Notes: generated from the sequence alone by a model not told the origin. Positions 9,154 to 58,328 are shown, counted from the first letter of the stretch. The stretch: 64,000 nt of DNA from a virus (IMGVR_UViG_3300013121_000013:91647-155646), one strand, 5' to 3'. Program-made: numbers and translations.

Positions 9154-9172
9154 TTTCAAAGAGGTAAAAATA

Positions 9173-9493: not shown

Positions 9494-9525
9494 TCAACAT
9501 CTACTGACAATTTAGTATTTGTAGA

Positions 9526-10875
9526 TTGAATAAGCAAGCCACAATTTTGTGGCTTGCTTATTCTCTTTTTGAGGAGATGATGAGTAGCGACAATATAAAG
9601 CTACAAGATTTCCTAGAGATTGTAAAAAACAATCCTAGTTATAACTTAGGTATCAAAGATAACAAAGCTGAAGTGGACGATTCTGGAAATATAACTTGTT
9701 CTTTCCCGTGTAGATCGGACAACGGTTTAACAGAAAGCCATAGAGTCACTATCACACCAAAAGGAAGACTTCACTTTTGGAACCACTCTATAGAAGAGTT
9801 AGAGGCTATAATTGCCGTAGAGCTGCTATCATTATCAAATAAAAATACAAATCGTCAACACTACCACCAGTGTAGATATAATCGAAGGAAAAAAGAAGGT
9901 AAGGACCTTCATAAACCAAACAAAAAAGAAAAAATCTCTCTAGCTGGAAGCTCCGCTTGTAACTGTGCATGTATTTTATATTCGTGGAGGACCGGCCTAG
10001 ATACTGGTGTTTGCCTTCCTATAATATTAGAAAGGCTACATATAGATAATATTATCTTTAAACAGTCGTGTATTCGAAAAAGGTGGCTAAATAAAAAGAA
10101 AGCTAATATTTTCTCTGTAGATATAAATTGTAACCTTAAAGATATAAATCAAGTTTTATATGCATACAAAGCAACAGACGACTCCGTTAAAGATTTTGTC
10201 CTTAGGCTACAAGATATTTTTAATTCTGATTTTGGTCTAAAGTCTACAACTAAAAAACATTACGACAATTCGATTGACATAGTGTTTAAAAATAAAAGCA
10301 CAGGTTGGTGTTTAAATATTAAAAACGGATTCAATATGGGAGATTTTCATTTTCTAACAAAGAGTGGCGGGTATCAAAGTTTATTCTGCAATCCTTTAGT
10401 TGTGTCTATAAGATCAACTAATGTTAAGACTGAAAATTTTCTAAAAGATACTATGGTAGGAAAATATCGTAATTATTTTGAAAAGCCATCTGTTTATGTG
10501 TATAAAGCTTCGACTAGTTATACAAGTCTAGACCTTAATTACATAGTAGCTGCGTTTATGTCTATGCACAATGGTCATTGTTCTACAGATATAAATATAA
10601 AATCAAGGAAACGGTATGTCGATAAAGTTATAGATCTAAGTAAGAAACTTACAACTGATTTCAACTTTGACAAGTATAGAGGATTAAAAATAAAAGCTAA
10701 AAGAAGCGGGTCCTCTTATACAGGAATCATAACACTAAACTTTGATATGGTGTGCAGTGGTCCTAAGATGGCAGATTATCTAATGAATAAGGTTTACAAA
10801 GCATATAAAGTTTTAAGTAGATTAAAATCTATCAAAGATTCGGATTTGCTACCATGGGAACGAGAGAGTAGTTAA
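9526..10875 (+). CDS. hypothetical, C-H-H-C paralog family member 1
   Basis: PCRS...SHRVTITPKGRLHFWNHSIEELEA...ACNC; probable start at ATG 9577/9580. Confidence 0.7.
   Translation: MNKQATILWLAYSLFEEMMSSDNIKLQDFLEIVKNNPSYNLGIKDNKAEVDDSGNITCSFPCRSDNGLTESHRVTITPKGRLHFWNHSIEELEAIIAVELLSLSNKNTNRQHYHQCRYNRRKKEGKDLHKPNKKEKISLAGSSACNCACILYSWRTGLDTGVCLPIILERLHIDNIIFKQSCIRKRWLNKKKANIFSVDINCNLKDINQVLYAYKATDDSVKDFVLRLQDIFNSDFGLKSTTKKHYDNSIDIVFKNKSTGWCLNIKNGFNMGDFHFLTKSGGYQSLFCNPLVVSIRSTNVKTENFLKDTMVGKYRNYFEKPSVYVYKASTSYTSLDLNYIVAAFMSMHNGHCSTDINIKSRKRYVDKVIDLSKKLTTDFNFDKYRGLKIKAKRSGSSYTGIITLNFDMVCSGPKMADYLMNKVYKAYKVLSRLKSIKDSDLLPWERESS
9528..9570 (+). terminator. rho-independent terminator
   Basis: GAATAAGCAAGCCACAA-TT-TTGTGGCTTGCTTATTC followed by TCTTTTT. 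Confidence 0.7.
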
Positions 10876-12177
10876 GTGCTAAAAAGAGATTTCAAGGTAT
10901 ATGTATTAAATCCTGACGTGCATATAGATAAAGCAAATGATTCATCCAATTACAACTCATATAAATATAGAATGAAAGATTGCAAGTTGAGAAAGGATTG
11001 CGATGGACATAAAATTACAATAAATGGCTGCGGTCCATGGAAGTTCCATAATCACACCAAAGAAGGGTTAGATAGTTCGCTCCTTATGATGGCTATGGGA
11101 AGCGAATATGATTTATGCAGTTCTATCTATCTTTTAATGTCAAGGCGATGTAGAACTCAAGAGAATAAAGACTTTGAAATATTAGTTCCTGATGGCTGGT
11201 ATCATCATGATAATTTTATCTTTTCAACCGATTTAGAGAGTAGTGAATTTATTAAATTATATACAGGTTTACATTTGCTAAAGAGAATAAGGAGAAATTC
11301 CAGACCTTCAGGATCAGACTCTAGTAAGTATTCGGTCGATGACTTTTTTAAAGAAAATCCTGAACACGAAAAACTTACTGGAAAACAATTCAGATCTTTA
11401 TTTATAGAGAGTCTTTTGAAGAAGTTGAAGAATGAACTTATTAAAAGAAAAGTGAAAACACAACTTAACTCTATAAGTCCTAGATCATATACAAGCTCTA
11501 GAATGTATCGAATGCCGCGTACCTACGGCAGGGCTTATGCTGTAACTCGTCTTAGATTTACCAGAAAAGGTAACGGCACATTTCTTGATGCAATAGATTG
11601 TTCTCCAGATCCTAGACAAGATACATACTACAAGACCGCTAAACAACTAAGGGAGCTTGAGGCCGAAGATAAAAATAACAGGGATATAACTAAAATTATA
11701 TTTATGTTATCTGGCCTAACAAATTCAAGAAATAGACTAGTAGATTCAGCAGACAGTATACAGCTTGTTGGACCATTTTTAGACGAAAAAACAATCGATA
11801 TTAGTTATCTAGCTACATGTCTTGAAGCAGCTTGGTTTCAAAGTATATGTAATAAACTATATGGACCTGGCACTAAGATAGAAAGAATTAATTCTTGTAT
11901 ACAAGATGAAATTAAAAATATGGTTAAGAACAGGTCTCTTAATATGTCTGTAGAATCGAGCTTAAAACAAAGATACACTTATCTACCTTACAGTACCCAG
12001 TCTACAGGTAATGTTCGCTCTATTCGTAAAATGGAAAAGGTCAGAGAACAGTTCAGTACAAATATAAGAATCAGCCTTAATTTTGATATTAAAGATATAG
12101 AGCATGACTGTCAGAGAATTAAAACTATGTTGAAACAGTTTATTTTGGAATACGACAAGGTTAAAAAATTAAAATAA
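10876..12177 (+). CDS. hypothetical, C-H-H-C paralog family member 2
   Basis: DCDGHKITINGCGPWKFHNHTKEGLD...AMGSEYDLC. Confidence 0.7.
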   Translation: MLKRDFKVYVLNPDVHIDKANDSSNYNSYKYRMKDCKLRKDCDGHKITINGCGPWKFHNHTKEGLDSSLLMMAMGSEYDLCSSIYLLMSRRCRTQENKDFEILVPDGWYHHDNFIFSTDLESSEFIKLYTGLHLLKRIRRNSRPSGSDSSKYSVDDFFKENPEHEKLTGKQFRSLFIESLLKKLKNELIKRKVKTQLNSISPRSYTSSRMYRMPRTYGRAYAVTRLRFTRKGNGTFLDAIDCSPDPRQDTYYKTAKQLRELEAEDKNNRDITKIIFMLSGLTNSRNRLVDSADSIQLVGPFLDEKTIDISYLATCLEAAWFQSICNKLYGPGTKIERINSCIQDEIKNMVKNRSLNMSVESSLKQRYTYLPYSTQSTGNVRSIRKMEKVREQFSTNIRISLNFDIKDIEHDCQRIKTMLKQFILEYDKVKKLK

Positions 12178-12194
12178 GGAATTAGAATTAGGTA

Positions 12195-12908
12195 ATGTCT
12201 ATAACACTCGGAAACAGTAAAATTGGTAAGAAGTTCACATGGACCTGGAGCATACCTCCTGGTTTAAATGGAACTTGTCCGGGAGAATCTTCAGAATGCG
12301 GACCAAATTGCTACGCTAAGAAGGGATTTCTTGGATGTGCTCCAGCAGTTGTTAAAACACAAAAAATCAACTATGAAATGTCTAAGACGCCATATTTTGC
12401 TGATTGGATGACACTCGAAATAAAAAAAGCAAAAGCTAAGCTATTTAGAATTCACGTAGCCGGCGATTTCTATGATATTGAATATACTAAGAAATGGCTA
12501 AAGATAGTCCAAGAATGTCGAGAGACCACTTTCTATGCATACACTCGATCCTGGTGCATAGATGAGATTCGGCCATGGCTTAATAAACTAGCAGAAAAGA
12601 CCAATTTTAGAATGTGGTTCTCTTGCGATAGATCAATGAAAGAACCATTTAGAAGTAAGAATGTACGACTTGCCTATATGCAAGTTGAAAAAGACGACAA
12701 GCCTGCATATCAAGTAGACTTGGTATTTAGAATTAAATCTCTAAGAAAGAATATTCAAAAGAAGGTCGATTCAATCCTTGTATGCCCTCCAGAAAATGGG
12801 GTTAGTTCTAAAGTTACGTGCGAATCTTGTGGTTGGTGTTGGAAGCCATTTGCGCAGGATGTAAATATTAAAGAAACAAAAAGAGTTCCTCTTTTAGTCG
12901 TTAAATAA
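12195..12908 (+). CDS. phage GP88-like protein
   Basis: GNSKIG, WSIPPG..TCPG...C...CYA, FRIHVAGDFY, FYAYTRSW, terminal CxxCxxC. Confidence 0.7.
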   Translation: MSITLGNSKIGKKFTWTWSIPPGLNGTCPGESSECGPNCYAKKGFLGCAPAVVKTQKINYEMSKTPYFADWMTLEIKKAKAKLFRIHVAGDFYDIEYTKKWLKIVQECRETTFYAYTRSWCIDEIRPWLNKLAEKTNFRMWFSCDRSMKEPFRSKNVRLAYMQVEKDDKPAYQVDLVFRIKSLRKNIQKKVDSILVCPPENGVSSKVTCESCGWCWKPFAQDVNIKETKRVPLLVVK

Positions 12909-12920
12909 GAAGAGATAAAC

Positions 12921-13298
12921 ATGAGCGCAGAGAAACGAAAGCTAGTTGTATCTTGTGAAGGTGAAACACACATTATAAAGATAAAGAAAAATAAGACGAT
13001 ACTTATGAGTGATCACTCTAGTGAGGACCTTAACCAATGGAAGATACTTCTAGCCTTTGGAGGTTACGGATGCACTTGTGTTTATCTCAACTCTTTGTCA
13101 GAAAAACTCAAGAAAGCCAATACCAGTTTCTGGGAATATATAAAGATTCTAAGACTTAATGGTGATATTTTTAGTAAATATGATATATCTAATCAAAAAC
13201 AAGAAGCGAAGCATCTATTCGACCTAAGATTAAGAGATATAGAAGAAAAAAGTATAATCGAAGAATCTCAAAAAGAGAAGGAATACTGGATTTTTTAA
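12921..13298 (+). CDS. hypothetical, C-H-H-C paralog family member 3 (short)
   Basis: VSCEGETHIIKI...LMSDHSSEDL...AFGGYGCTC. Confidence 0.7.
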   Translation: MSAEKRKLVVSCEGETHIIKIKKNKTILMSDHSSEDLNQWKILLAFGGYGCTCVYLNSLSEKLKKANTSFWEYIKILRLNGDIFSKYDISNQKQEAKHLFDLRLRDIEEKSIIEESQKEKEYWIF

Positions 13299-14503
13299 TG
13301 TCGAGAGCTTTTCAAATTCCATTTAAGGGCACTTCTAGGTATGACGAGCTAATTAAACAAGACGAAGAAGTTCAAAGTGAAGTTAACAAAGAATTTTCTA
13401 AGACCTTCAATTCTGTCGAGTCTCTGTCGTTTAAAATAAATTGTCTAAAGTCTGGTATTACTTTTATGAACAGATGTGGCCAACACACCAGACATAAGGC
13501 CATGATTAAAAATAATTGTCTTGTACTTTTGAAGCACGAAAAAAGTGAATTAAATGCTTTAGAAGCTATGTCAGCGCTGGCGTCTTTAGGTTCAGATCAA
13601 ATAGATAAATGCTCTCCTCTTCTTAATTGTTTTATAATATTAAAGGGCTGGAGAGAGGCAAGAGTAAATAAAGTCCCTGATCCAATGTTGCCTTATCTAC
13701 ATTATTATTGTGTGGACGATATTAGAGTAGAAGGACGGCGACTTCTTAGAGTTATCCAAAATAAGCTGGACAAGAGATTGCGTCTAAAGCACGATCCAAA
13801 GTCTATTTCTGCCGGCGGTGACGAAGCTCTAGCAACTAAGTACGTAGCTTTACAATTAAGAAAACTTGGGTTTAACGATATTGAACTAAAAGCTCGTAAT
13901 GGATTCGATTCAGACAAGATCAATGTTATATTGAGCATTAATGGTTTTAAATTTTTTATGGATCTTTATTACTCCTGTAATTATAAACGTCTTTATCTAT
14001 CATATAGAGGAGGTACAGAAACCTCGGTCAGAACTAGTGAAATTCTTTGCCCGGATTGTTCTATTGAAAGCTTAGCTGCAGACATTCTTGGATCTCTTTA
14101 TATAAACCATATATCAAAAGAACATAATGACAGTTATGCTAAGATATCAGACATGTACATGAAAGAAATATCTGATAGTGAAAGAGCTAAGGATATCAGA
14201 TTAGAAAAGATCTCTGTTCACAAATCGTCTGATCTTCATATTAATAGAACCAATGCACATAGAACTTATTGTTATGAATGCCTTCCTATTGATAACAGAA
14301 ACTATTCTACTTTTTATAAATCTTCTCAAAGAGAAAACATCGCCACTATTTCAATTCCTATTCCTTTTGGAAATAAAGGAACTGTAAAATTTGCCATATC
14401 AAAACTTCAAAAATTGCTTGAACAGTTAAATGCCGTACATCCAGAACTTAATATAGAGGCGGATAAAGATGCAAAGTGCAAACTCGGTGAAATCATTTGT
14501 TAA
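13298..14503 (+). CDS. hypothetical, C-H-H-C paralog family member 4
   Basis: [29 protein letters not shown]...SLGS...NCFIILKGW. Confidence 0.7.
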
Positions 14504-15101
14504 TGAATACAATTATAGTAGCGTGCTATTACCTGACTGGAAAATCGAAGAGCTTGGAATAGTTACCCCGTGCGAGAAAGCTAAAAAAAGACCAGGTGTC
14601 ATAAGCTACGGATTAAGTAGTTATGGGTATGACGCTCGAGTCGGGTCCAGATACAAGATAGTCAATAAACCCAAAATAGAATCCGACTATCAAGCAGAGA
14701 AGCACAAGGGTTATATAATCGACCCCAAAAATATATCTGAAGAGTTATTTGAAGAAATAGAAACTGATAAATGTATTATACCGCCAAACAGCTTTGTCCT
14801 GGCAGAAACGGTTGAAACTTTTTGCATACCAAGAAATGTTTTATGTGTATGCGTGGGTAAGTCTACATATGCAAGATGTGGAATTATAGTAAATGTTACG
14901 CCTTTAGAGCCAGAATGGAAGGGCAAGATAACAGTAGAGATTAGCAATACAACACCAGTCCCAACTCTGGTGTATTCAAATGAAGGAATTATGCAGATCC
15001 TGTTTTTCCAGTCGTCTCTTGATTGTAATGTAAGTTATCAGGATAAGAATGGAAAGTATCAAAATCAGTCCGGTTTGGTCCTGCCAATGGTGGATAAATG
15101 A
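14469..15101 (+). CDS. dcd: dCTP deaminase
   Basis: [50 protein letters not shown]. Confidence 0.93.
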
Positions 15102-15331
15102 AAATCTGTGAGCGGTGTAAGGTAGAGCCCGCCCGTAAAAAGGAAAGGTTCTGTAAACCTTGTCGATATACAATCTTGGCCGAGATGGAGAATACAGGAT
15201 ACTTTACACCTACAGAAAATAATAACTTATCCGAGTCAGTATCCAATGAGCTACCGAGTGTAAAGGAAATGTTCTTCGAGATGAAAGAAACCGGGTTAAT
15301 TCCTGATATCGATCTTGAAGAACAAATCTAA
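15098..15331 (+). CDS. small Cys-containing hypothetical protein
   Basis: CERC...FCKPC. Confidence 0.55.
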
Positions 15332-15354
15332 TTTAAAGGGTGTGGTGATAGACT

Positions 15355-16746
15355 TTGGGTAAGCAGACTCTTGACACTTCAGATATTCTATTGGATAAAG
15401 AACAATCTATAGGTAAAAAGATTCGGACGGCTCAAGGCTATGAGCTCCCTCCTACAGGGTATATTGCAAAATTCATTATTAAAGATTGTGGGCACGGTAA
15501 AGCTCTGCATCATATGTATATCCGAACAAATGGTCGTATTGAATTCAGCAATCATAAAATTGAGCAGCTTAAGTCTGAGTCTGTTCAAGTATGTATGGCC
15601 ATTTCTGGATCTAATACAGAAGAAATAGATAAGTCCTGTCGCCCATGTGCTTTTGCTTATTACTGCTTTACTACAGGTAGAATAGACTTACTTCGTAAAG
15701 ATAAAAGATTTGTTATGCCTGCTAAACTACCATTTGGTTGGTTGCCTTCTGGGGACGAAAAGTATGGCATCAGACTTAGAAAAAAATATTTAAAGCTAAA
15801 AGGATTAGATGAATTTGAAAATCCCATATTAGTTAAATACAAGGCTTCATCTGTGTCTAGTGGACAAAATATAGTTAAAGCTATTTTTGACATCATATCT
15901 AAACGAATTGATGGACGTCTATCAATAAATCATAATTGGAGAGGTAGCCAAATTAGCCTAGATATTAATTTGGTTAAACATCTAAGAGATGCAGATATGG
16001 AAGTTATAGTTAATAGGTACGTAAAGCTAAATGGTATGTATTATGGATTAAAACTTTCTGACTATAGGAAACATATTGAAAATAAAGATTTGGCAAAACT
16101 GCACTCTCTTGCACAATCTTGTCTAATAGGTAAGTATTCGACATGGGATAGTGAGCCTATTTTAACATTTAGAGCGAACAACAAGAAAAACGGCTTAAGA
16201 ACATTTAATGTAGGTAATGGCCTTATTTCTTCAAGTAATTATTTTGAATTGAACTATCCCAAAACTGGGTGGGTGGACATAAGACCACTAGTAATAGCTA
16301 GCGAAGCAGCCATTTTGGCTTCTGATTGTGTAACTAGGATTAAAGTTAAAGATGCCATCGAAAAAATTAAGGCAGAAGACTTTGCGGAGGTGTTGACAAC
16401 TGAGCTTAATAGAAACAACGGTATAGTTGGAACAATGCCAACATTAGCTTTAATAAGTCATAATCATAGTACTAACAATAGACTAGACTACAGGCTTTAT
16501 AAAAGTCCTTTTGATCCGGTAAGTAGAGATTATAGATATGAATTTTTAAATACCTTCTATATTGCATCTGCAAATAGTTGTAAACTAAAGCCTTATGCTG
16601 AATCTTATGAATCTTATCCTATGTCTAGCAAAATAAACGGTATGTCAAAGTCTATGACAAGGCTAGTCGCAAATAAATTCGAAAAATTAAGATTAGAGCT
16701 ATGTAGTCTAACAAACTCTGCCAGAAAATATAAAGAAAACTTCTAA
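15355..16746 (+). CDS. hypothetical, C-H-H-C paralog family member 5
   Basis: DCGHGKALHHMYIRTNGRIEFSNHKIEQLKSE...SCRPC. Confidence 0.7.
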   Translation: MGKQTLDTSDILLDKEQSIGKKIRTAQGYELPPTGYIAKFIIKDCGHGKALHHMYIRTNGRIEFSNHKIEQLKSESVQVCMAISGSNTEEIDKSCRPCAFAYYCFTTGRIDLLRKDKRFVMPAKLPFGWLPSGDEKYGIRLRKKYLKLKGLDEFENPILVKYKASSVSSGQNIVKAIFDIISKRIDGRLSINHNWRGSQISLDINLVKHLRDADMEVIVNRYVKLNGMYYGLKLSDYRKHIENKDLAKLHSLAQSCLIGKYSTWDSEPILTFRANNKKNGLRTFNVGNGLISSSNYFELNYPKTGWVDIRPLVIASEAAILASDCVTRIKVKDAIEKIKAEDFAEVLTTELNRNNGIVGTMPTLALISHNHSTNNRLDYRLYKSPFDPVSRDYRYEFLNTFYIASANSCKLKPYAESYESYPMSSKINGMSKSMTRLVANKFEKLRLELCSLTNSARKYKENF

Positions 16747-16759
16747 AAAGGTCTTTCGA

Positions 16760-17350
16760 ATGTTTGCATCTGTTCTTGGAGGTAGTTCTCTTCCTGTTTA
16801 TTTCTATAAAAGAGCAGAGTCGTGGGATGAAGCTTGCGACGGCTTGAAGATCCTCATAGAGTCACTCCTATCAATTAATCCTAATCTTGATCTAAAAGAA
16901 ATTATGCTTCCTATGAGGGTAGTTGAAGTATTTAACAAATCTCTATTTTACACTGAGTATGCTCAAGATAAATTTGAGTTTATCAATTTACATGAAAAGG
17001 AAAGAATAATTAAATATATTATGCTCCCCTCATCATTTCTACCTATGCATTTTAGATATGTAGTAACTTTTGGTGAGTGGGCCTTAGAAGGTAATAAAGT
17101 CTGGAAATTTATTAGATCAAAGCCAGATAAACCTATGGAATGCCTTAAGGAGTCTATTGACGCTCTAAAATCCATTAAAAAATTATCTCCAATCGACTAT
17201 AGTTCTCTCAAAAATAAAGCATTTATTACCGGATCAATACTTCATTACAGAATTGCCGACAATATATTTTATATGAATACACCGGAAAAATTTGGACAAA
17301 AGATGTTTCCCAGGGAGTTCATAGATAATATCTTTTTCTCCATAAATTAA
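16760..17350 (+). CDS. hypothetical protein
   Basis: 196 aa ORF in operon-like spacing. Confidence 0.6.
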   Translation: MFASVLGGSSLPVYFYKRAESWDEACDGLKILIESLLSINPNLDLKEIMLPMRVVEVFNKSLFYTEYAQDKFEFINLHEKERIIKYIMLPSSFLPMHFRYVVTFGEWALEGNKVWKFIRSKPDKPMECLKESIDALKSIKKLSPIDYSSLKNKAFITGSILHYRIADNIFYMNTPEKFGQKMFPREFIDNIFFSIN

Positions 17351-17356
17351 AGGCAG

Positions 17357-17740
17357 GTGCAGATATACATGTCTATAAACTTAAAAGCTATTCTTTCTAA
17401 GCAAATGGCAGAAATAGAAAAAGTAGACAGGTCTAGACAAAACAACAAGTTAATAAGTAAATTCTCATCTCTTCGTGAAGCCATGCTAATGCTTAATGGT
17501 GAATGGCAAAGTTTAAATGAAGAGATGAGATCTAGTCAAAATAAAGAGATGAACGAAGCTGCGGTAGTTGCAAAGCTTATTAGGACTGCAGCTGTTTGTC
17601 TTAAGGCCGCTTGTGATCTTAGTTGCCATAAGTCTGCAGTGAAAGTGGCAGAAATACTTGATTTCTATAAAGAGCCAGACTTCGGATATATACCAATAGT
17701 CAGACCTGGAGACGAAGATAAAAGAAGAAAGAAAACTTAA
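17357..17740 (+). CDS. hypothetical, possibly degenerate MazG-like helical protein
   Basis: FSSLREAMLML.GEW...KLIRTAAVCLKAACDL pattern. Confidence 0.45.
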   Translation: MQIYMSINLKAILSKQMAEIEKVDRSRQNNKLISKFSSLREAMLMLNGEWQSLNEEMRSSQNKEMNEAAVVAKLIRTAAVCLKAACDLSCHKSAVKVAEILDFYKEPDFGYIPIVRPGDEDKRRKKT

Positions 17741-17788
17741 TATTAATTAACACTTAAGAATAACTAGTTTTAGGACAAATTAGGATTA

Positions 17789-18442
17789 ATGAGTTTTTCG
17801 AGTAAAGAATCTACAACTTTTTTAAACAAATTGGATAAAGAATCTATAAATAAATATAGAAATTATTGGAAAAACTTAATACCAAAGACCCACCTTGATT
17901 ACTGGAAGAGGTGGGTCTTTTCATTCATGTCCGTGCATACAACATGGAAGCAGAATGTAAAGGGATACGAAGCTGTGGTATCTCTAGGAATGGATTTTAA
18001 TAGAAGGCAGCTTAGAAGACGCATAGAGTCTTCCAGAGTGGGTCTAAATAGGATCAGGACTGAAGGTATACTAAGAATGACAAAGAGCTTTATAAGTGAT
18101 CCTAGGAGCTGGTATCCTGGTGAAAACGAGTCCTTCAGAGACTGTAGAGATAGACTTATGAATGAAACCTTCGGTCTAGGTATAACAAAGGTCTCATTTG
18201 TGTTGGAGCTGCTAGATCCAGAAAAGTGTGATGCTGTATGTTTAGATACCCATCTCTTACAGCTATATAAGCTGCCAAGGTCCACTCCTAATAAAACTCT
18301 TTATAAAGATGTAGAAAATCATTGGATCGATATTTGTAAAAGTAGAAAGATGCCAAGTCCTTTAGCTAGGCATATATTTTGGGATAGAAAACAAGGAAAG
18401 AATTTGAATAACTACTGGGCATATGTATTTGAAGCTGCCTAG
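17789..18442 (+). CDS. HhH-GPD superfamily DNA glycosylase (OGG-like)
   Basis: GLGITKVSFVL helix-hairpin-helix with Lys, and CLDTHLL with catalytic Asp. Confidence 0.7.
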   Translation: MSFSSKESTTFLNKLDKESINKYRNYWKNLIPKTHLDYWKRWVFSFMSVHTTWKQNVKGYEAVVSLGMDFNRRQLRRRIESSRVGLNRIRTEGILRMTKSFISDPRSWYPGENESFRDCRDRLMNETFGLGITKVSFVLELLDPEKCDAVCLDTHLLQLYKLPRSTPNKTLYKDVENHWIDICKSRKMPSPLARHIFWDRKQGKNLNNYWAYVFEAA

Positions 18443-18465
18443 TTATAGATCTTGGTTTTTAAACT

Positions 18466-18725
18466 AGTAGTAGAAGCCTATAGGCTTCTACTACTTTTAT
18501 AGATAATAAACAAAGCGACGAAGTCGCGTCCTCTTATACGTAGTATAAGAGTACACCTAAAGTTTTAGGTGTGTAATTTGTCACAAGGTCTTGATTCGGC
18601 AGCACTTACAGTAAAATTTTCTTTGCAGACTGCGTTTAAAAATCGACGCATGTACCATTTTGATACAGAAATATTACATAAGACCTTATTGTATAAGCAG
18701 TTACGTTCTAAATTTTAGGTGTGTA
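18466..18725. repeat. cluster of palindromes and direct repeats (candidate replication origin)
   Basis: 30-bp perfect palindrome 18466-18495, further hairpins at 18515, 18531 and 18552, TTTTAGGTGTGTA x2, two related 28-mers. Confidence 0.6.
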
Positions 18726-18766
18726 TTTCAAATACTATAGCGTTATGATCCGATCGGAGAATATGA

Positions 18767-19693
18767 GTGTGCAAGTGTTGCTCATTCCCCGGACTAAAGT
18801 CCTTCCATGGACATCTGATAGACTTTAAGTTTGGTAGAAAGATATACAGATCGTTTGCATGGCGTTCTGGTATATCCTCGTTGTCTAGATTGTCAGATGT
18901 ATCTTTCGACTCCAAACCTCTATCCTTCTTGGCGGACATCCAGCAGACATGGAGACAGGCTCTAGGGCGCCTAGCTTCGACTCAGTGGCAAGAAGCGTAC
19001 AATTTCGAGACAATGCTTCGACTATTGAACTGCGTGCCATACGGGGCCTCTGTGAAGCCTAAGGGCCGTTTCTGTGAGTTCAGTTCTGTCTGCCCCTGGT
19101 GTTGGGCACGAGCACAGTTGTCACTAGTGAAGCATGTTTCTCAAATCGTGAATGACTATTCACGAAATCGAGGTCCTATATACAAATATTTAAAAAATAG
19201 ATACCCGAAGTTTTTGAAACCCAGAGCTTGTGCATCCGATTTGCAGCTAGTATATGGCTCTATTGTCACCAAGGAGCCCGACCTTCAGCACGACGGCAGT
19301 AGGTTTAATTTAGAGGGGTATTTTGATTACGTATCCAAAGGCAGGTGTAGCGTAGTTAACAGTATGCGCACTATCGGTGCAAGGCATATGTTTACAGCTG
19401 AACCTATACTTAGAAGGTTTATTAGATCTGGTGCTACAATGGATTTTTGGAAGTTAAAATCTAGATTCTTATGCTTATTTTATAAGAAAGAACCATTTAT
19501 AGACGGGTCTATTGATGGATTTAAATGCATAAGCCCGCCCGATAATCTATCTATATCAAAAGCTGTCTCCGAAGTTTTTAAGTATCCAGCTGGATATTTG
19601 TTAAGCAATCCTATATTAGTTGGCGAATTACTTAATACAAAGAGTAAGTTCAGGACTATGGAAAGTTACGGAATCTTAAGAAAGTTTAAATAA
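18767..19693 (+). CDS. hypothetical, possible degenerate Rep-like protein
   Basis: FCEFSSVCPWCWAR Zn motif; no intact HUH motif. Confidence 0.55.
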   Translation: MCKCCSFPGLKSFHGHLIDFKFGRKIYRSFAWRSGISSLSRLSDVSFDSKPLSFLADIQQTWRQALGRLASTQWQEAYNFETMLRLLNCVPYGASVKPKGRFCEFSSVCPWCWARAQLSLVKHVSQIVNDYSRNRGPIYKYLKNRYPKFLKPRACASDLQLVYGSIVTKEPDLQHDGSRFNLEGYFDYVSKGRCSVVNSMRTIGARHMFTAEPILRRFIRSGATMDFWKLKSRFLCLFYKKEPFIDGSIDGFKCISPPDNLSISKAVSEVFKYPAGYLLSNPILVGELLNTKSKFRTMESYGILRKFK

Positions 19694-19746
19694 AGTTATA
19701 GTTATATTTAACTAAATTGTCATAATATTAAGTCCTGTATGTTTTT

Positions 19747-19995
19747 ATGTCTATTATTGGAGACTACATAACTATGCCGTCGAATAAGCCTTCGAATAAA
19801 AAGCCACTAGAAGATCAATATCCGAATGGCGGGCCCAGAATATGTTTGAAGTGCGATATAGAGTTTTTTTCTATAGATATCGTTAGAAATAGAATATGCA
19901 AACAGTGTAATAAAGAAAATTCACTTTCTAAGGTTTCAAGTGTGTTTCGTCTATCTGAAGAGGTTTCTTCATTCTTCTCTAGCGAAGAGTTTTGA
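19747..19995 (+). CDS. small zinc-finger protein
   Basis: RICLKCDIEFFS...NRICKQC. Confidence 0.6.
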   Translation: MSIIGDYITMPSNKPSNKKPLEDQYPNGGPRICLKCDIEFFSIDIVRNRICKQCNKENSLSKVSSVFRLSEEVSSFFSSEEF

Positions 19996-20009
19996 TAGAC
20001 GTCAATCAA
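19992..20009. promoter_or_regulatory. 18-bp palindromic motif, copy 1
   Basis: TTGATAGACGTCAATCAA (one mismatch to consensus TTGATAGA-NN-TCTATCAA). Confidence 0.65.
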
Positions 20010-20022
20010 ATTAAAGGCAGTA

Positions 20023-21525
20023 ATGAGACGACCAAGAATACTAGTAATGGGCGACGCTATGCTAGATGTTTACAAGCATTGCGTCGGAGCGAGGGTATCG
20101 CCAGAATCGCCATCTCTTATTGGAAGACTTCAGAGAACATCCTATTTTCCTGGAGGCGCAGCCAATGTGGCTTCTAACCTGGCAACTTTAGGTGCAAGAG
20201 TTCAGTTTATATACGTCTGTCAAAGTGGCGAATCTAATACACTTCTTCAAAATTCATTTCCTTATTCTCCCGAACCTGTTCGGTTTACAAATATAGAGCC
20301 TCCCGTAAATACCGCACTTATTAGAAAGACTAGATTTGTTATTTCTGACAAGCAAGTCTTTAGAGAAGATCTAGAGCCAGCATCGGTCAGCGATTTATAT
20401 TTTCAAAAAAAATTCTATCAAAAAGTTATAGGGGTGTTCGGAGAGGCTGTTAGAGAATTTGATCCAGATTGTGTGGTCTTATCCGATTATTTAAAAGGAT
20501 GTCTAGTAGCGCCAGAAACAACTCACTACATCTCTCAGAGAGGTGGACTTGTATTTGTTGATACTAAAGACAAGGACTGGAGAAGGTTTACAGGGGCTTT
20601 TTGTATCAAAGTAAATCAGTTTGAATTTGCTAATGTTAATCAGTATACATTTGAAGATGCCAAAATAGATGAAAGAGCTGTTCTGAGAAGATTCAGACTT
20701 GGCAATATAGTAGTAACAAGAGGCGAAGAAGGAATGTCTTGGTATGGAAGTGATATACAGGAAATGCATCTTAAACCGGAACATACAAATCAGGCAGTAG
20801 ATGTAACAGGGGCTGGAGATACAGTCCTAGCTGCTTTGGCGTACAGGCAAGCTATGCACTCTATGGAAAAGGGTGTAGAGACTGGTTCAAGAAATCTGCC
20901 ATTCCAAGAAGACACTTTAAAGTTTGCATCTGTTGCTGCAGGCATTGCTGTTAGTCATCCTGGCACAACCTCTGTTTATGGGGTAGAAGTATTAACAAAG
21001 TTTCGAGGTACAGACGGTAAGATTTTTAGAGAGGATAGTGACTCTATAGTTGATCTTAATAGTCTCATAAGGTGCTGGAAGTCTCGGAACTATACTATAG
21101 CATTTACCAATGGTTGTTTTGATCTGTTCCATACAGGCCATATGAATATTATAAACAAGTGTTCAGACCTTGCGGATAAAGTTGTGGTTGCCATAAACAA
21201 TGACGAATCTATCTCTTCGTTAAAAGGGTCAACGAGACCTATTGTTGATGAGGTGGAAAGAGCTCGATTGCTTGCCGCTATGGAGGTTGTAGACGCTGTT
21301 ATTATTTTTAATAGCGTGTCTCCTTTAAAGATGATCGAGTTGGTTTCTCCTGACTTCCTAGTAAAGGGAGATGATTATAGAGAATCTGACATTATTGGGT
21401 CCAGTTATGTTAGAGATAGAGGAGGGAAAGTGGTTATTATTCCAAGAGTCAGTAATAACTCAACTACTGGAATTATTTCAAAAGTCTTTAATAACCATAG
21501 TAAGAATTTAGAAGGAACAAGATAG
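20023..21525 (+). CDS. hldE: bifunctional heptose-7-phosphate kinase / heptose-1-phosphate adenylyltransferase
   Basis: GDAMLD, RVSPESP, GGAANVA, SDYLKG, DVTGAGDT (PfkB), then FTNGCFDLFHTGH, LKGSTRP, LVKGDDY, STTGII. Confidence 0.92.
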   Translation: MRRPRILVMGDAMLDVYKHCVGARVSPESPSLIGRLQRTSYFPGGAANVASNLATLGARVQFIYVCQSGESNTLLQNSFPYSPEPVRFTNIEPPVNTALIRKTRFVISDKQVFREDLEPASVSDLYFQKKFYQKVIGVFGEAVREFDPDCVVLSDYLKGCLVAPETTHYISQRGGLVFVDTKDKDWRRFTGAFCIKVNQFEFANVNQYTFEDAKIDERAVLRRFRLGNIVVTRGEEGMSWYGSDIQEMHLKPEHTNQAVDVTGAGDTVLAALAYRQAMHSMEKGVETGSRNLPFQEDTLKFASVAAGIAVSHPGTTSVYGVEVLTKFRGTDGKIFREDSDSIVDLNSLIRCWKSRNYTIAFTNGCFDLFHTGHMNIINKCSDLADKVVVAINNDESISSLKGSTRPIVDEVERARLLAAMEVVDAVIIFNSVSPLKMIELVSPDFLVKGDDYRESDIIGSSYVRDRGGKVVIIPRVSNNSTTGIISKVFNNHSKNLEGTR

Positions 21526-21842
21526 TGGGCAGACCAGCATTAACGATTATTCATATTAACAAGCATATAATCACTAGTAATATTAAGAACAAATCTAAAA
21601 AGCATCCTATAACATTTAAAAGAAAGAGTGGGGGTAAAGCTAGCTATACAAGCTGCGCTGTCATTGTGGACGAGAATGGCAAAGAGGTGGCTAGAGTTGT
21701 TTATAGGCCTGATAACCCCCTAGGGTGCGGTGCCAGATGTTGGATAGAGACTAGAAATAAAGTGGTCAAAGAAGAGGAATTGGAATCTAGCCAAAAAGAA
21801 TTGGAGAATGATAAATGCATCTCTTCTTGCTCATTAGCCTAG
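21525..21842 (+). CDS. conserved phage hypothetical protein
   Basis: IIHINKHII...VVYRPDNPLGCGARCWIET. Confidence 0.6.
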   Translation: MGRPALTIIHINKHIITSNIKNKSKKHPITFKRKSGGKASYTSCAVIVDENGKEVARVVYRPDNPLGCGARCWIETRNKVVKEEELESSQKELENDKCISSCSLA

Positions 21843-21884
21843 TAGTGTCAGTAGTTCTTATCGAAATTTATTTGGCTAAAAATT

Positions 21885-22697
21885 TTGTCGATAGAAGATT
21901 TAATAGGAACTAAGGAGATAGAAATGAAAATCATAAAAGAGCCCTCTGTATATTTGATTGGCCAGCAAACTATAAACGACGATGCCTTAAACAAATTTCT
22001 CAAAGATCATGAAGTATCATGGTCAACTGATACAGATGTAGCTGCGGAAGTTTTATGCGAAACAGCTGGGCGTGTATGTTATATGAGTTTTGCTGCTCCA
22101 AGACCTGGAGGTAATTCTGCGTATTTAAAACATATTAAAGAAGTTGGACACGGCTCTGTACTTGAACATTCTGTTTGGAATTTTATCATAACTGGTGTTT
22201 CAAGATCTCTTACACACGAGTTTGTACGACATCGAGCCGGCTTTGGTTACAGTCAATTAAGCCAGAGGTATGTAGACGAGAGTGTGGCGGAATACGTAGA
22301 ACCTGATTGCATTGCGGAAGATCCAGAATTACACAGCGTTTGGCTGGAAGCCGTAACTCACGCTCACTCGTGCTATGAAAAGCTTAGTGCAATGTTAAGT
22401 AAAAAATTCTCTGGTATAGAAGATAAGACACAGAAGAGGAAGATGGCTAGACAAGCTGCTCGTAGCGTTCTACCAAATGCTACAGAGACTAAAATGTTCG
22501 TTACAGCTAATGGACGAGCTCTAAGACACTTTATAGAGATGCGAGCTAGCGCCAGCGCTGATCCAGAGATTAGAAAGTTGGCTGTAGAGCTATGGAAAGT
22601 ATTGGTAAATAATGCTCCAAATTTATTTGGAGATTATCGACAAGTTAAACTAGAAGACGGAAGCATAGCTCTAGATTCTAACTTCAAAAAGGTTTAA
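21885..22697 (+). CDS. thyX: FAD-dependent thymidylate synthase
   Basis: AGRVCYMS, GHGSVLEH, SRSLTHEFVRHR, SQLSQRY, ARSVLPN; probable start MKIIKEP. Confidence 0.95.
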   Translation: MSIEDLIGTKEIEMKIIKEPSVYLIGQQTINDDALNKFLKDHEVSWSTDTDVAAEVLCETAGRVCYMSFAAPRPGGNSAYLKHIKEVGHGSVLEHSVWNFIITGVSRSLTHEFVRHRAGFGYSQLSQRYVDESVAEYVEPDCIAEDPELHSVWLEAVTHAHSCYEKLSAMLSKKFSGIEDKTQKRKMARQAARSVLPNATETKMFVTANGRALRHFIEMRASASADPEIRKLAVELWKVLVNNAPNLFGDYRQVKLEDGSIALDSNFKKV

Positions 22698-22698
22698 A

Positions 22699-23559
22699 AT
22701 GAGGCCGTTTGAAAGACCAGACATTTTTAAGCCTATTAAGCCATCTTCTAAACTAGCTGAGATTCTGCCCAATAAAAATCTCTCTTCTTTAACAAAAAAA
22801 GAGCTTAATATTAAGAAAAAAGATAGAAAGAAAGTGGCCTCTTATGCCAGAGTTGTATGCTGTGACGGCGACGAGGTTCATTATATTGGATTATCGAAAA
22901 AGGGAAGATTCATAAGCTTTAATCATTCTATTAAAGAGCTAGAGGCAGACGCAGCTCATGCATGCCTTGGAGGGCAACCGTGCGGCTGTACAAAGATGTA
23001 TATGAAGCTAAGGGCTGTGTTTGATTGGCTTAAGTTCAGTCAAGACGACTCAGACTTTGTGTATTCTAAAAAAGATAGATGGAAAGCTATAGTTGAAACT
23101 CCAAATCTTTATAATGTCGAGGACAATGGTGTATACGATTATGGTCATAGAACGTTTTTGTACGGCTTTAATAAATCATTCTTTGAAAAGTTAGTACGAT
23201 CAGTAGCAGTTAAGTATAGACGACACATTAAAGCTTTGCATAAAAATAATAAAATCTTTGTTTATATTGATTCTAATATAATGGTATCTTCTTCAAAATC
23301 TCAGCCATTTGATTTGAATAGGTCGTCTATAGAGTTCACAGCAGAACAGTTAAAAATACTGGGCTGTATAACTCAGGCTATATGCGGTGACGTTGAAGCT
23401 AGAGAGATGACCTTTTTAAGTCCTATCCCTTTAAGTGCCGCTGTGGCAGGAATATTAAGAAGATATAGGCATTTGTGCTTTTTACTTCTAGATGCGAGTT
23501 TAACCAGCCTTAAAGAGAGAAATACTAATTCTGATTTTATATGTAGGTACGTATTTTGA
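22699..23559 (+). CDS. hypothetical, C-H-H-C paralog family member 6
   Basis: CCDGDEVHYIGLSKKGRFISFNHSIKELEA...LGGQPCGC. Confidence 0.72.
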   Translation: MRPFERPDIFKPIKPSSKLAEILPNKNLSSLTKKELNIKKKDRKKVASYARVVCCDGDEVHYIGLSKKGRFISFNHSIKELEADAAHACLGGQPCGCTKMYMKLRAVFDWLKFSQDDSDFVYSKKDRWKAIVETPNLYNVEDNGVYDYGHRTFLYGFNKSFFEKLVRSVAVKYRRHIKALHKNNKIFVYIDSNIMVSSSKSQPFDLNRSSIEFTAEQLKILGCITQAICGDVEAREMTFLSPIPLSAAVAGILRRYRHLCFLLLDASLTSLKERNTNSDFICRYVF

Positions 23560-23571
23560 ATCGGAGATACA

Positions 23572-24699
23572 GTGTCTAAACCAATTTTTGTAGTAAGTGC
23601 TGATTGGCATTTAGAGAGATATGCCTGGGCTAAGTACCCTGACTTGGCTGGAGATGCATATTTCGGGCTAGAACAGTTAATTCAGTACTGTGTAGAACAC
23701 GAGCTTCCACTTGTAGCGGCTGGAGATTTATTTGAAAAGAACTATCCAGATTCTTTGTCTGTAAATGTAGCTCATAGAGCTATGTCGTTAATGGAGTCTA
23801 AATCTTTACCTGTATATTTTATACAGGGTCAACACGAAATGGTGAGAGAGCAGCCCTGGCTAGGTATTCATAAGTGGCCGATTCACGTCCATAAGAAGTT
23901 ATTTCAAATAGAGGATTATCTTCTATATGGATTGGACTACCAGAGATCTGACACCATAGGCAGTGAATTAAAACAGATACCAAAAAACTCAGATATCCTT
24001 GTTGCCCATCAAGTTTGGCACGACTTCATGGGCAATATAGGTAAGCCAGAATGTTCTTCATCGGATGTTCCTCATGTTCGATATATAGTGACTGGCGATT
24101 TCCATAAGCTAGTCCTTGCATCGGGCGTTGGATCCACGCATCAGAATTTAAAGATTATCTCACCCGGGCCTTTGTGTCTACAGTCAACTAGTGAACCTGT
24201 AGATAAGTTCTTTTTGATATTTCATTCTGACGGAGAAGTTACGACTCAGAAGTTAAAGACAAGGCCATTCTATAAGCATGTCATTTCAAGAGGAATAGAT
24301 TGGGATGCCTGGCATGTATTCCTAGAAAGAGATTGTAAACCAGGAGATGAAGATTTACCGGAAAATATTAGAAAGCCAATTTTGTATATCAAATATCCGG
24401 CCGATATGAAAAATGCTTATGAAAAGATATTAAGAATAGTAGAAGATAAATATCATTTATTCCTTAATCCTATTTCCGAATACCAACCAAGTCTGGTGTT
24501 AGCAGATGCAGAAGAGAGAAAAGAACAAGCATCGGTTGACGTTCAAGGATGCTTGGCCAAGACAATTGATGCACTCTTCGGAGAATCTTCAAAAAAGGGT
24601 AAAGATGTCTTCGAGTGTGTCTCCAGGCTACTTGAACGTGAACTGCATGGATCTTCTAAAGAGGAGCTCCAAATTATGGAACGCGACATGGATAGATAA
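23572..24699 (+). CDS. SbcD/Mre11-like nuclease (gp47-like)
   Basis: SADWHL, AGDLFE, QGQHE, VAHQ, TGDFH metallophosphoesterase motifs; near SbcC-like gene. Confidence 0.82.
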   Translation: MSKPIFVVSADWHLERYAWAKYPDLAGDAYFGLEQLIQYCVEHELPLVAAGDLFEKNYPDSLSVNVAHRAMSLMESKSLPVYFIQGQHEMVREQPWLGIHKWPIHVHKKLFQIEDYLLYGLDYQRSDTIGSELKQIPKNSDILVAHQVWHDFMGNIGKPECSSSDVPHVRYIVTGDFHKLVLASGVGSTHQNLKIISPGPLCLQSTSEPVDKFFLIFHSDGEVTTQKLKTRPFYKHVISRGIDWDAWHVFLERDCKPGDEDLPENIRKPILYIKYPADMKNAYEKILRIVEDKYHLFLNPISEYQPSLVLADAEERKEQASVDVQGCLAKTIDALFGESSKKGKDVFECVSRLLERELHGSSKEELQIMERDMDR

Positions 24700-25717
24700 T
24701 GAATATATTTATTTCTATAAGTCTAGCTCTGCTTTCGTTAAAGACTGTGACGGAAAGCATAAAGACTTGATGCAATATTTAAAATCTAGACACTCTATTA
24801 GAGGTCTACCCAGATCTCAGAGATCTGAAGTTGTTGAGTCTATAACTGTTGAGTGCGGTAAAGAGAAGTGCCAGCACTTTGTTTCTAGAAAAAAGAACGG
24901 TCGATTAGTACTGGTCAATCACAAGAACTTTCTTAAAGAAGAAAGAGTATTATACGCACTTGGTGACAGAAGTTGTACATGTGTGTCAGTACTTGAAAAA
25001 GTTAAGAACTTGCCTTCAAAAGGGCCTTTAACAGACAACTCTCTATCAGAGATGATTTCTGAGATGTATAAGATACAAGATTTAAGAAAGCGTACACGCC
25101 AATCATATCTTATAGATTCAGATAATTGTTCAGATCTTAGCGATCCTCTGAAGTTATCGTTGATGTGTAGGGCGGCTTTGACATCGGTCTCTGCTGCAAC
25201 AATGGCTTTTTCTAAATTTTGTTATCCGTATGTAGATGAGAATACAGATGTAGAATTTTACTCTATTGTTATGTCTAGTGAGATACCTCTAGATAGCGAA
25301 AAGACTAATCATTATGCTATTTCATTTAAAAGTCTTAAAAAAGACAATACAATTAACTTAACCAAGGATGGTATAGTCTCGGTCGTACGCTCATATAAAG
25401 TTAATAGTAGAAAAACCAGTCAATACAATTGCCCAGAATCTGCTTCTACAGTTTTTATATTAATTGATCCTATGCTATATTTTTGGACTAAGAAGATTGG
25501 ATTTTCTTCTATAAATCAAAATCTAGTTCTACATTACATTTCACAATATAGAAAAAGAGACGAAATTATATATGAGCTGGTTGTATTGAAGCCAGAAAGA
25601 AGAGGTCAAGAATTTAATCCGTGGGTGGCTACAGTTAAGTCTAACGGAAGTAAACTGTATGACCTTCAGTTCGTAAAGAGAGTAAAGAGATATAGAGATG
25701 TCGTTAAACCCAGATAA
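24506..25717 (+). CDS. hypothetical, C-H-H-C paralog family member 7
   Basis: VECGKEKCQHFVSRKKNGRLVLVNH...EERVLYALGDRSCTC; true start likely downstream of the track start. Confidence 0.7.
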   Translation: MQKREKNKHRLTFKDAWPRQLMHSSENLQKRVKMSSSVSPGYLNVNCMDLLKRSSKLWNATWIDNEYIYFYKSSSAFVKDCDGKHKDLMQYLKSRHSIRGLPRSQRSEVVESITVECGKEKCQHFVSRKKNGRLVLVNHKNFLKEERVLYALGDRSCTCVSVLEKVKNLPSKGPLTDNSLSEMISEMYKIQDLRKRTRQSYLIDSDNCSDLSDPLKLSLMCRAALTSVSAATMAFSKFCYPYVDENTDVEFYSIVMSSEIPLDSEKTNHYAISFKSLKKDNTINLTKDGIVSVVRSYKVNSRKTSQYNCPESASTVFILIDPMLYFWTKKIGFSSINQNLVLHYISQYRKRDEIIYELVVLKPERRGQEFNPWVATVKSNGSKLYDLQFVKRVKRYRDVVKPR

Positions 25718-26033
25718 TATTTTTGAACAACATGGTTCGTTATTTCCAACTTGTAAAGTATTTAAAATTGTTGTTAGGTGTGTAGGAGGAGAGGAACACT
25801 TTATAATCGTAGATCTAGAGAATAATAAGTTATCGTTTGTAGATCATCCAGATATGGGTGAGGACTTACTAAACAGAGAAAAAGTATTATCTTCATTAAG
25901 TGGAGAACCACTTAATGGTTGTTTCTTGGCTTACAAATCCTGGCTAGAGGACGATCCAGATTCGTCACCGGTTGCCTTACGTCCTCATGTGCTATCTAAA
26001 ATATATACAGGACTACCGAAGATAATAATTTAG
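25698..26033 (+). CDS. hypothetical, C-H-H-C paralog family member 8 (short)
   Basis: VRCVGGEEHFII...KLSFVDH...REKVLSSLSGEPLNGCF. Confidence 0.72.
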   Translation: MSLNPDNIFEQHGSLFPTCKVFKIVVRCVGGEEHFIIVDLENNKLSFVDHPDMGEDLLNREKVLSSLSGEPLNGCFLAYKSWLEDDPDSSPVALRPHVLSKIYTGLPKIII

Positions 26034-26063
26034 ACGATTGTTCATTGGTTTTGAGGAATTATA

Positions 26064-28208: not shown

Positions 28209-28217
28209 GGGGCTTTA

Positions 28218-29129: not shown

Positions 29130-29149
29130 TTTCTTGAAAGGATCATAAA

Positions 29150-58324: not shown

Positions 58325-58328
58325 TAAA

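Follow-up and report, generated by a model that had tools for sequence, protein, structure and literature searches.

In a contig of 155,646 bp from a large, uncultured phage in IMG/VR (IMGVR_UViG_3300013121_000013; estimated completeness 76%), twelve proteins share a domain of approximately 55 residues, with conserved residues in the order Cys-His-His-Cys (the CHHC domain), and the family is linked, by operon, gene neighbourhood and phyletic pattern, to a gene pair encoding a MoxR-type AAA+ ATPase and a protein that combines a zincin metallopeptidase with a von Willebrand factor A (vWA) domain. With moderate confidence, the domain can be considered a zinc-stabilised handle that would tie variable tails to this MoxR/vWA-peptidase machine, the proteins that carry it acting as adaptors or as clients. 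The window analysed comprises bases 91,647-155,646 of the contig (64,000 nucleotides), and positions are those of the window unless marked 'contig'.

A first-pass annotation had proposed that eight open reading frames (ORFs), beginning at positions 9526, 10876, 12921, 13298, 15355, 22699, 24506 and 25698, share an N-terminal domain. All eight are located on the + strand, and each carries the domain near its N-terminus. Pairwise BLAST comparisons among them yield weak matches, always within the same N-terminal stretch. In a leave-one-out scheme, where a profile built from seven members was run on the complete six-frame ORF set of the contig (1,257 ORFs), each of the eight was found (E 1.1e-8 to 4.1e-3), with only fellow members ranking level or higher, and the profiles always retrieved four further ORFs absent from the training set. 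An independent profile, built exclusively from 38 foreign proteins of ~250 aa, matches 11 of the twelve members (E 7e-20 to 3e-4), ORF 15355 being borderline (E 0.034, versus 0.079 for the best noise match). With a broad family profile, twelve ORFs of the contig score at E <= 4e-7, and the next one at 0.33. The alignment and profile check thus bears out the common domain and the membership of all eight ORFs, but not the count of eight, since the contig holds twelve members, ten within the window and two outside it; the additional four are found at 327-644 and 58248-58622 of the window and at contig 21705-22532 and 22514-23047. The shared domain is real, and the family is larger than was first noted. 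Neither megablast of the region nor tblastn of three family members produced a match in 50,697 GenBank phage records.

Alignment of the twelve contig copies reveals that both His residues and the second Cys of the CxC element are invariant, and that the first Cys is present in 11 of the 12, which corrects the C-H-H-C motif initially described at its first position. A family profile search of 1.84 billion cluster representatives identified 350 clusters at E <= 1e-3, including 25 at E <= 1e-10. Within 153 domains taken from the top 150 clusters, the Cys and His columns are conserved at 99% (C10) or 100% (H16, H31 and C52), and further conserved positions are Gly24 (88%), [N/D]30, Glu39 (64%), a GG pair (~77%) and W59-R/K60. 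The putative ligands span ~43 profile positions, over three strands and two helices. An AlphaFold2 model of the domain, generated from the twelve paralogs only, displays these three strands and two helices with a predicted local distance difference test (pLDDT) score of 84.3; the predicted order is a strand, a Cys turn, a strand starting with His, a short strand, [N/D]-His, a helix, a loop and a Cys that opens the second helix. The latter is preceded by GG-x-C-x-Cys and ends in W-R, and the putative ligands are placed at loops or at the edges of secondary structure elements. Column conservation and predicted ligand placement both lend indirect support to the zinc-binding role originally suggested, and the ~55-residue module is most likely a small metal-binding domain, with zinc as its metal.

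The description of the domain as unannotated was upheld, since the eight window members gave no credible Pfam or PHROG match (sub-threshold chance matches only) and none to any characterised family. ORF 24506 had no match in NCBIfam, ORFs 22699 and 24506 had none in PADLOC, the family profile found none among PDB sequences, and canonical relatives had none in Pfam, NCBIfam, PADLOC, PHROGs or PDB. A Pfam search of 150 relatives returned nothing except two DUF2201 hits, both from a single frameshifted locus, and a weak match of one member to EST1; names of relatives in databases are limited to 'hypothetical protein' or are lacking altogether. Fold searches of PDB and BFVD structures with the domain model gave no convincing neighbour (best Foldseek E 0.35, VIA Z 3.0, BFVD E 0.11). 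The relatives occur in uncultured phages, Acidimicrobiales, Solirubrobacterales and other Actinomycetota. The zf-U11-48K finger of U11-48K, TRM13 and gametocyte-specific factor has the same order of ligand types, Cys, His, His, Cys. That finger spans about 25 residues, unlike the ~43 positions observed here, and gave no Pfam match to the eight ORFs (E <= 1) or to the relatives (E <= 1e-3); the likeness is in name only. The SWIM zinc finger was rejected as well, the ligand order here being C...H...H...CxC and not CxCxnCxH, with no Pfam match. With regard to HNH/His-Me nucleases, no profile matched, fold searches listed no nuclease, and [N/D]-H is predicted to lie directly before the helix.

The two members outside the window are embedded in a translationally coupled operon of four genes located ~67-71 kb upstream of it, in the order MoxR, CHHC (275 aa), CHHC (177 aa) and zincin/vWA, where all junctions overlap stop and start. 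The MoxR-type ATPase (contig 20629-21705; Pfam AAA_5, 1.9e-8) retains intact Walker A and B motifs; the two CHHC genes follow (contig 21705-22532 and 22514-23047), and the zincin/vWA protein (contig 23031-24446; DUF2201_N 8e-44, DUF2201 6e-20) retains both HExxH and the DxSxS of the metal-ion-dependent adhesion site (MIDAS). These MoxR and zincin/vWA genes correspond to a widespread phage module, PHROG 1297 (E 9e-50) plus PHROG 1314 (E 7e-52), and belong to the N4 gp24/gp25-type pair (AAA_5 + DUF2201_N/DUF2201). By tblastn, the vWA protein retrieves ASV44728.2 of Atu_ph07, 'Gp25' of RaK2 and a metallopeptidase of an N4-like Vibrio phage. The CHHC proteins belong to neither the MoxR nor the vWA family, and form a separate third family, as judged from Pfam, PHROG and NCBIfam searches with the eight members and 150 relatives. 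Two other AAA genes near members were considered and set aside, namely contig 88525-90135, a generic AAA protein beside a DUF3150 gene, and window 57133-57753, a nucleotide-kinase-like P-loop protein; neither is a MoxR. The zincin/vWA family is widely labelled 'HNH endonuclease' in PHROG 1314 and in GenBank records, which is probably a propagated misannotation, since Pfam, HExxH and the MIDAS motif point to a metallopeptidase-vWA protein. In the cultured N4-like Vibrio phage SBP1, a 166-aa 'HNH endonuclease' (gp030; locus L082, 3051-3551) lies between the MoxR and metallopeptidase genes, and this slot, which is the one taken by the two CHHC genes here, may hold an unrelated third component.

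The MoxR/vWA neighbourhood of CHHC genes recurs in other uncultured phage contigs (L005/6, L009, L011 and L016) and, with a diverged AAA_5 gene, in L010. A scan of one genome per GTDB species yielded 24 loci, nearly all from metagenome-assembled genomes (MAGs) of Acidimicrobiales or Solirubrobacterales, some on megabase contigs; in these loci, MoxR, vWA and CHHC are either co-directional, or vWA and MoxR are divergent from CHHC. A metagenome scan added 39 further loci. MoxR/vWA genes are present within 5 kb in 33 of the 60 non-redundant foreign loci, which had been retrieved by canonical-subfamily motifs; 21 of the 60 are too short for their neighbourhood to be judged, and the count among informative loci is thus 33/39. 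Among 301 Actinomycetota genomes forming one even sample, the CHHC family is present in 10 and DUF2201 in 20, all 10 being included in the 20, and every carrier has a CHHC copy within ~3 kb of DUF2201. Five genomes with a non-adjacent CHHC gene each still hold exactly one DUF2201 gene. Two 2.6-Mb actinobacterial genomes (G026 and G041) display nine family-profile matches each, over several contigs, which indicates that expansion of the family is not confined to phages. An apparent vWA-CHHC fusion (P0101, locus L080) was discarded, since the vWA part is split over three frames and the CHHC part over two, a frameshift in a contig of 70% GC; the locus still shows the order MoxR, vWA, CHHC.

For phage Atu_ph07, Iyer et al. 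2021 (PMC7824862) described ASV44729.1/ASV44728.2 as a previously unrecognised chaperone/co-chaperone pair with an N-terminal metallopeptidase, and suggested that it acts in virion assembly as chaperone and co-chaperone, with peptidolytic processing. According to Kaur et al. 2020 (PMC7159879), the MoxR-vWA pairs that have been characterised capture a client through the vWA domain and remodel it by means of the ATPase, with a third protein joining in 'ternary' systems. It is on the basis of this capture-and-remodel model that the CHHC domain is read as a zinc-stabilised handle for the zincin/vWA-MoxR pair. The canonical CHHC protein is the product of the third gene of a MoxR + zincin-vWA (DUF2201_N/DUF2201) cassette, and in the window phage ten further old paralogs are scattered through the nucleotide-metabolism/recombination region. 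The domain would be the constant part by which the pair engages these proteins, while the cargo, target or fate of each copy could differ with its variable tail. If the proteins are adaptors, the twelve copies would be alternative third subunits; if they are clients, they would be remodelled by the ATPase and perhaps cut by the zincin. The docking or adaptor module with diversified tails that had been proposed for the family fits its embedding in the MoxR-vWA operon, its adjacency and phyletic tie to this pair, and the rapid evolution of its tails, with the correction that the tails are not all unrelated; no evidence was found in favour of the common partners suggested at that time, ClpS/ClpCP or a virion protein, and the likely partner is MoxR/vWA.

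A number of observations weigh against this handle. Six foreign loci lack MoxR/vWA despite having at least 5 kb on both flanks, the manner in which the foreign loci were retrieved biases the neighbourhood tally towards the canonical subfamily, and the co-occurrence statistic (Fisher P = 1.3e-13) ignores shared ancestry. In the contig itself, 10 of the 12 copies are away from the MoxR/vWA operon. In Actinomycetota, CHHC is often divergent from MoxR/vWA, a layout that is also typical of a transcription regulator. Furthermore, Atu_ph07, the N4-like Vibrio phage and RaK2 carry the pair without a CHHC gene, as determined by a profile search whose query does match other genomes; the pair therefore works without the CHHC family, which must be regarded as one partner family of the module and not as a universal one. 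Lastly, with tails that have no homologues, 'target recognition' by these tails is a guess. A bolder version, considered doubtful, holds that CHHC is a universal plug and that a dozen tails re-aim one machine at a dozen host or phage proteins, for example defence proteins; it would imply a takeover system that is adaptor-based and programmable, and that descends from a single-adaptor form in actinobacterial chromosomes.

Compared with the published N4 gp24/gp25-type pair, which consists of two genes, Actinomycetota and several uncultured phages have a third family, CHHC, inserted or fixed beside it, and the phage of the window has expanded this family to twelve copies. The closest logic is that of the MoxR-vWA ternary conflict systems (PMC7159879), where a MoxR ring and a vWA protein are joined by a conserved third protein (VMAP, iSTAND, FtsH or beta-propeller); one component is diversified in both cases, and both are frequent in Actinomycetota. 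A feature of such systems, a conserved third gene that is co-located and co-occurs with MoxR and vWA, was observed for CHHC in 33/39 loci and 10/10 carrier genomes. Unlike those of the ternary systems, however, the CHHC protein matches no VMAP, iSTAND, FtsH-like or beta-propeller Pfam domain, and its predicted fold differs; the vWA protein has an N-terminal zincin, whereas ternary-system vWA proteins have C-terminal effector arrays, and the term DUF2201 is absent from Kaur et al. 2020 (PMC7159879). The adaptors ClpS, SspB and MecA could serve as an analogy, in that a constant docking part is combined with a variable recognition part to steer one ATPase/protease. They bear no sequence or fold relation to CHHC, and the threading of substrates into a protease chamber is not a known activity of MoxR rings.

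The tails had been described as unrelated to each other, and BLAST indeed detects no tail-to-tail similarity, but the ORF 24506 tail has homologues in a widespread full-length family. When the N-domain is masked, 56 of the 150 top relatives cluster as one family of ~250-aa proteins, and some relatives of ~480-550 aa consist of two ~250-aa units in tandem. In the canonical plan, the CHHC domain and W-R are followed by two helices, the first of them with 'LP..L', and a variable middle separates these from a C-terminal block of the form W...VY.RGLA.VDG.FVL. The profile of the foreign family matches ORF 24506 over positions 8-234 of 238 (E 6.6e-20), hhalign aligns this ORF to the family over 220 columns with a probability of 98.3, and the protein encoded at contig 21705-22532 matches the family end to end (E 4e-17); for ORF 10876, the hhalign match (probability 91.5) is confined to the N-domain. 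An AlphaFold model of ORF 24506 has a mean pLDDT of 69, reaching ~90 in a C-terminal four-strand sheet, plus a confident C-terminal helix; its structural neighbours are generic (best Z 5.9, propeller blades; PC4/Sub1, Z 4.5-4.7), and none is convincing. The other five long tails match neither each other, nor the 150 relatives, nor any entry of a 5.8-billion-protein index, and the tail of ORF 15355 has no relative outside its own cluster. A search of the ESM Atlas gave no usable match, and no catalytic motif is conserved in the tails. The best explanation for these data is that the ancestral setting of the domain was a ~250-aa protein with a CHHC domain, two helices and a C-terminal four-strand sheet. 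Tandem arrays of four full-length canonical CHHC genes are present in L017 (a Bacillota MAG contig, 2-2759) and in L043, short contigs on which no MoxR/vWA genes are visible, and L011 encodes two consecutive proteins that each hold two complete CHHC units.

A sister contig (Logan ERR10798492_59, locus L004), syntenic with the window from ORF 12921 onward, holds orthologues of all six copies in the syntenic stretch, with their positions kept. The ratio of non-synonymous to synonymous divergence (dN/dS) between the two contigs is 0.17-0.23 in the four CHHC copies with measurable divergence, and 0.03-0.10 in neighbouring genes (0.03-0.07 for DCD, ThyX, SbcD, SbcC and HldE), which identifies the CHHC copies as real genes under purifying selection, relaxed three- to eightfold relative to that on these five genes. 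The tails evolve faster than the neighbouring genes, and the fastest-evolving copy, ORF 22699, is 77.5% identical to its orthologue (66% in the tail; dN/dS 0.21), as opposed to 97% for ThyX and SbcD. For every CHHC domain of the contig, there is a foreign sequence that lies nearer than all of its sister copies, and the paralogs must therefore be old. Divergence between 21525-29461 of the window and 8828-16772 of the sister contig is a mosaic, in which dS amounts to 0.5-0.9 over orf105, ThyX, ORF 22699 and SbcD and is essentially 0 from ORF 24638 through ClpS, which indicates a recent recombination breakpoint near the sbcD end. The distant relative L010, whose GP88 and SbcD are 46% and 40% identical to those of the window phage, carries four CHHC genes within 11 kb; three of them immediately precede GP88, as in the window phage, and the fourth lies downstream of the diverged AAA_5 gene and a 455-aa gene. 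In this relative sbcD overlaps sbcC directly, with no CHHC gene in between, and when the CHHC proteins of both phages are compared, similarity can be recognised in the N-domains only; yet another relative carries a 358-aa gene and three small genes at the sbcD/sbcC junction. These differences indicate that copy position and tail content turn over and that the handle is kept. No close viral relative was retrieved when SbcC and SbcD served as queries.

The main rival to the handle, regarded as unlikely, is a family of DNA-binding regulators, in which CHHC would be a nucleic-acid-binding zinc finger, the canonical member would regulate the MoxR/vWA operon, and the phage copies would act on other gene sets. 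In about half of the actinobacterial loci the gene does stand divergently beside MoxR/vWA, but in the window phage and in many loci it is located inside the operon, with overlapping stop and start. Basic R/K residues are conserved at profile columns 9, 17, 23, 25, 37 and 60, and a W-R pair is found on the last helix; the domain of ORF 22699, however, is roughly neutral in charge, as judged by eye. The phage copies lie among early or DNA-metabolism genes, and the C-terminal sheet weakly resembles PC4/Sub1 binders of single-stranded DNA, although the Z scores of 4.5-4.7 are inside the noise range stated for the tool, and no DNA-binding family is matched by sequence or fold.

Less probable still is the suggestion that the members are pure clients and that MoxR/vWA, as a metallochaperone, inserts or swaps the metal of their C-H-H-C site, so that the phage copies would be enzymes or binders requiring metal maturation. 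Several characterised MoxR-vWA pairs, including NorQ/NorD, CoxD/E and the chelatases, mature metal centres, and both the invariance of the putative ligands and the tight link to MoxR/vWA could be accommodated by a similar role here. Nevertheless, a structural site of the Cys2His2 type normally needs no chaperone, the zincin peptidase domain of the partner would be unexplained, and the tails lack a conserved catalytic motif.

It is highly improbable that the dispersed copies are selfish, homing-type genes with a catalytic N-module and DNA-binding tails, akin to T4 seg/mob. They are indeed multi-copy, located between conserved nucleotide and recombination genes, and faster-evolving than their neighbours, and the sbcD/sbcC junction is filled here and empty in a relative. 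However, they contain no nuclease motif and match no HNH, GIY-YIG, LAGLIDADG or His-Cys box family, and the [N/D]-H predicted directly before the helix is unlike a beta-beta-alpha-metal finger; moreover, in its ancestral form the gene is chromosomal, present in a single copy and tied to MoxR/vWA, the paralogs are old, as each is nearer to a foreign sequence than to a sister copy, and all six copies keep their positions in the sister contig. Finally, the notion that the motif reflects a chance or compositional likeness among unrelated ORFs, some of them non-genes, to which the weak pairwise BLAST E-values might have pointed, is excluded by the retrieval of members with leave-one-out and independent profiles, the clean score gap between twelve ORFs and noise, the 350 foreign clusters, a dN/dS below 0.25 in all four copies with measurable divergence, and the confident fold prediction for the domain.

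All CHHC genes of the window, as well as the GP88, SbcD and SbcC genes beside them, lie on the + strand. The gene at 327-644 encodes 105 aa, mostly domain (~402-590), in which Ser replaces the first Cys and His, His and Cys are kept (family profile E 1.8e-13; paralog leave-one-out profiles 2.3e-4 to 1.3e-2). ORF 9526 (9526-10875, 449 aa, orphan tail; leave-one-out 1.8e-5, family profile 6e-13) carries its domain at ~9730-9996, with an insertion of ~45 aa ahead of CxC. A terminator-like hairpin with a 16-bp stem followed by a T-run (9528-9563, + strand) stands directly after a 144-aa ORF that follows the gene for class II ribonucleotide reductase (RNR); it marks the end of the RNR/144-aa unit and the boundary of the cluster's first CHHC gene, and since the TTG start at 9526 falls under the hairpin, ORF 9526 probably starts at ATG 9577. 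ORF 10876 (10876-12177, 433 aa, orphan tail, domain ~10978-11151; leave-one-out 4.1e-3, family profile 4.6e-12) is followed by a GP88-family gene (12195-12908; PF17338, Pfam E 1.3e-30), which is a neighbour and not a member. Such Cys-rich GP88 genes (PF17338/DUF7227) adjoin CHHC genes here, in L010 (2355-3047) and in the P0153 contig, and GP88 is a second recurrent neighbour of the family within the phage lineage. ORF 12921 (12921-13298, 125 aa; leave-one-out 1.7e-8, family profile 2.4e-16, dN/dS 0.17 versus its sister-contig orthologue) consists of the domain (~12933-13094) and ~60 aa. Orphan tails are present in ORF 13298 (13298-14503, 401 aa, domain ~13457-13663; leave-one-out 1.4e-3, family profile 1.3e-9, dN/dS 0.19) and in ORF 15355 (15355-16746, 463 aa; leave-one-out 6.1e-8, family profile 3.6e-7, dN/dS 0.23), whose domain, at ~15481-15669, is the most diverged, as well as in ORF 22699 (22699-23559, 286 aa, domain ~22846-23016; leave-one-out 3.5e-7, family profile 1.3e-16).

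The genes among which these members are interspersed had been described as nucleotide and recombination genes, and class II RNR, GP88, dCTP deaminase (DCD), ThyX, SbcD-like and SbcC-like genes were identified there. The SbcD/Mre11-like nuclease subunit (23572-24699) matches PHROG 100 (E 2.5e-5) and, through its N-terminal motifs, SbcD/Mre11 entries of the PDB (E 1e-3 to 4e-3), and the SbcC-like ATPase subunit (26064-28208) matches Pfam SMC_N and AAA_23 as well as PHROG 77 (E 4.5e-34). The placement of two members, ORFs 24506 and 25698, between these genes was confirmed. The former is the canonical ~250-aa-family member of the window (24638-25717, 359 aa; GTG start, frame open from 24506), with a middle insertion and its domain at ~24836-25009; its sister-contig orthologue is likewise called from GTG 24638, with 359 aa. 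The latter (25698-26033, 111 aa; leave-one-out 3.8e-6, family profile 7.7e-13) is mostly domain (~25758-25949). The last member, at 58248-58622 (124 aa, domain ~58362-58547; family profile 3.7e-16, paralog leave-one-out profiles 1.2e-4 to 1.5e-3), overlaps at its start, by ~75 bases, the end of a RuvC-like resolvase ORF (57698-58324; PHROG 159). A promoter scan revealed no enrichment (55 sites versus 59.5 expected). Among the nucleotide-metabolism genes, positions 20023-21525 encode a 500-aa fusion of a PfkB kinase and a cytidylyltransferase-like domain (HldE-like), which may supply a sugar nucleotide for DNA or surface modification. Downstream of sbcC lies a ClpS-like gene (29150-29461), whose sister-contig orthologue is 99% identical and carries Pfam ClpS; nothing was found that links this gene to the CHHC family.

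A MoxR-vWA pair with a third component is of a kind already known; no searchable source files or describes the CHHC third component, its domain or the twelve-fold expansion seen here in a phage, and the searchable literature contains nothing functional on DUF2201 and nothing on a CHHC-type partner. CHHC is a new domain family, comprising 350 or more clusters (50% identity), that is absent from Pfam, PHROGs, NCBIfam and the PDB. N4-like phages and many jumbo phages carry the MoxR/protease-vWA pair as a core or common module, and the CHHC proteins are candidate clients or adaptors for it, in which a constant, putatively metal-binding handle is combined, in this phage, with twelve different tails. 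If CHHC were indeed a universal plug, it would provide a first handle on the role of the N4 gp24/gp25-type pair.

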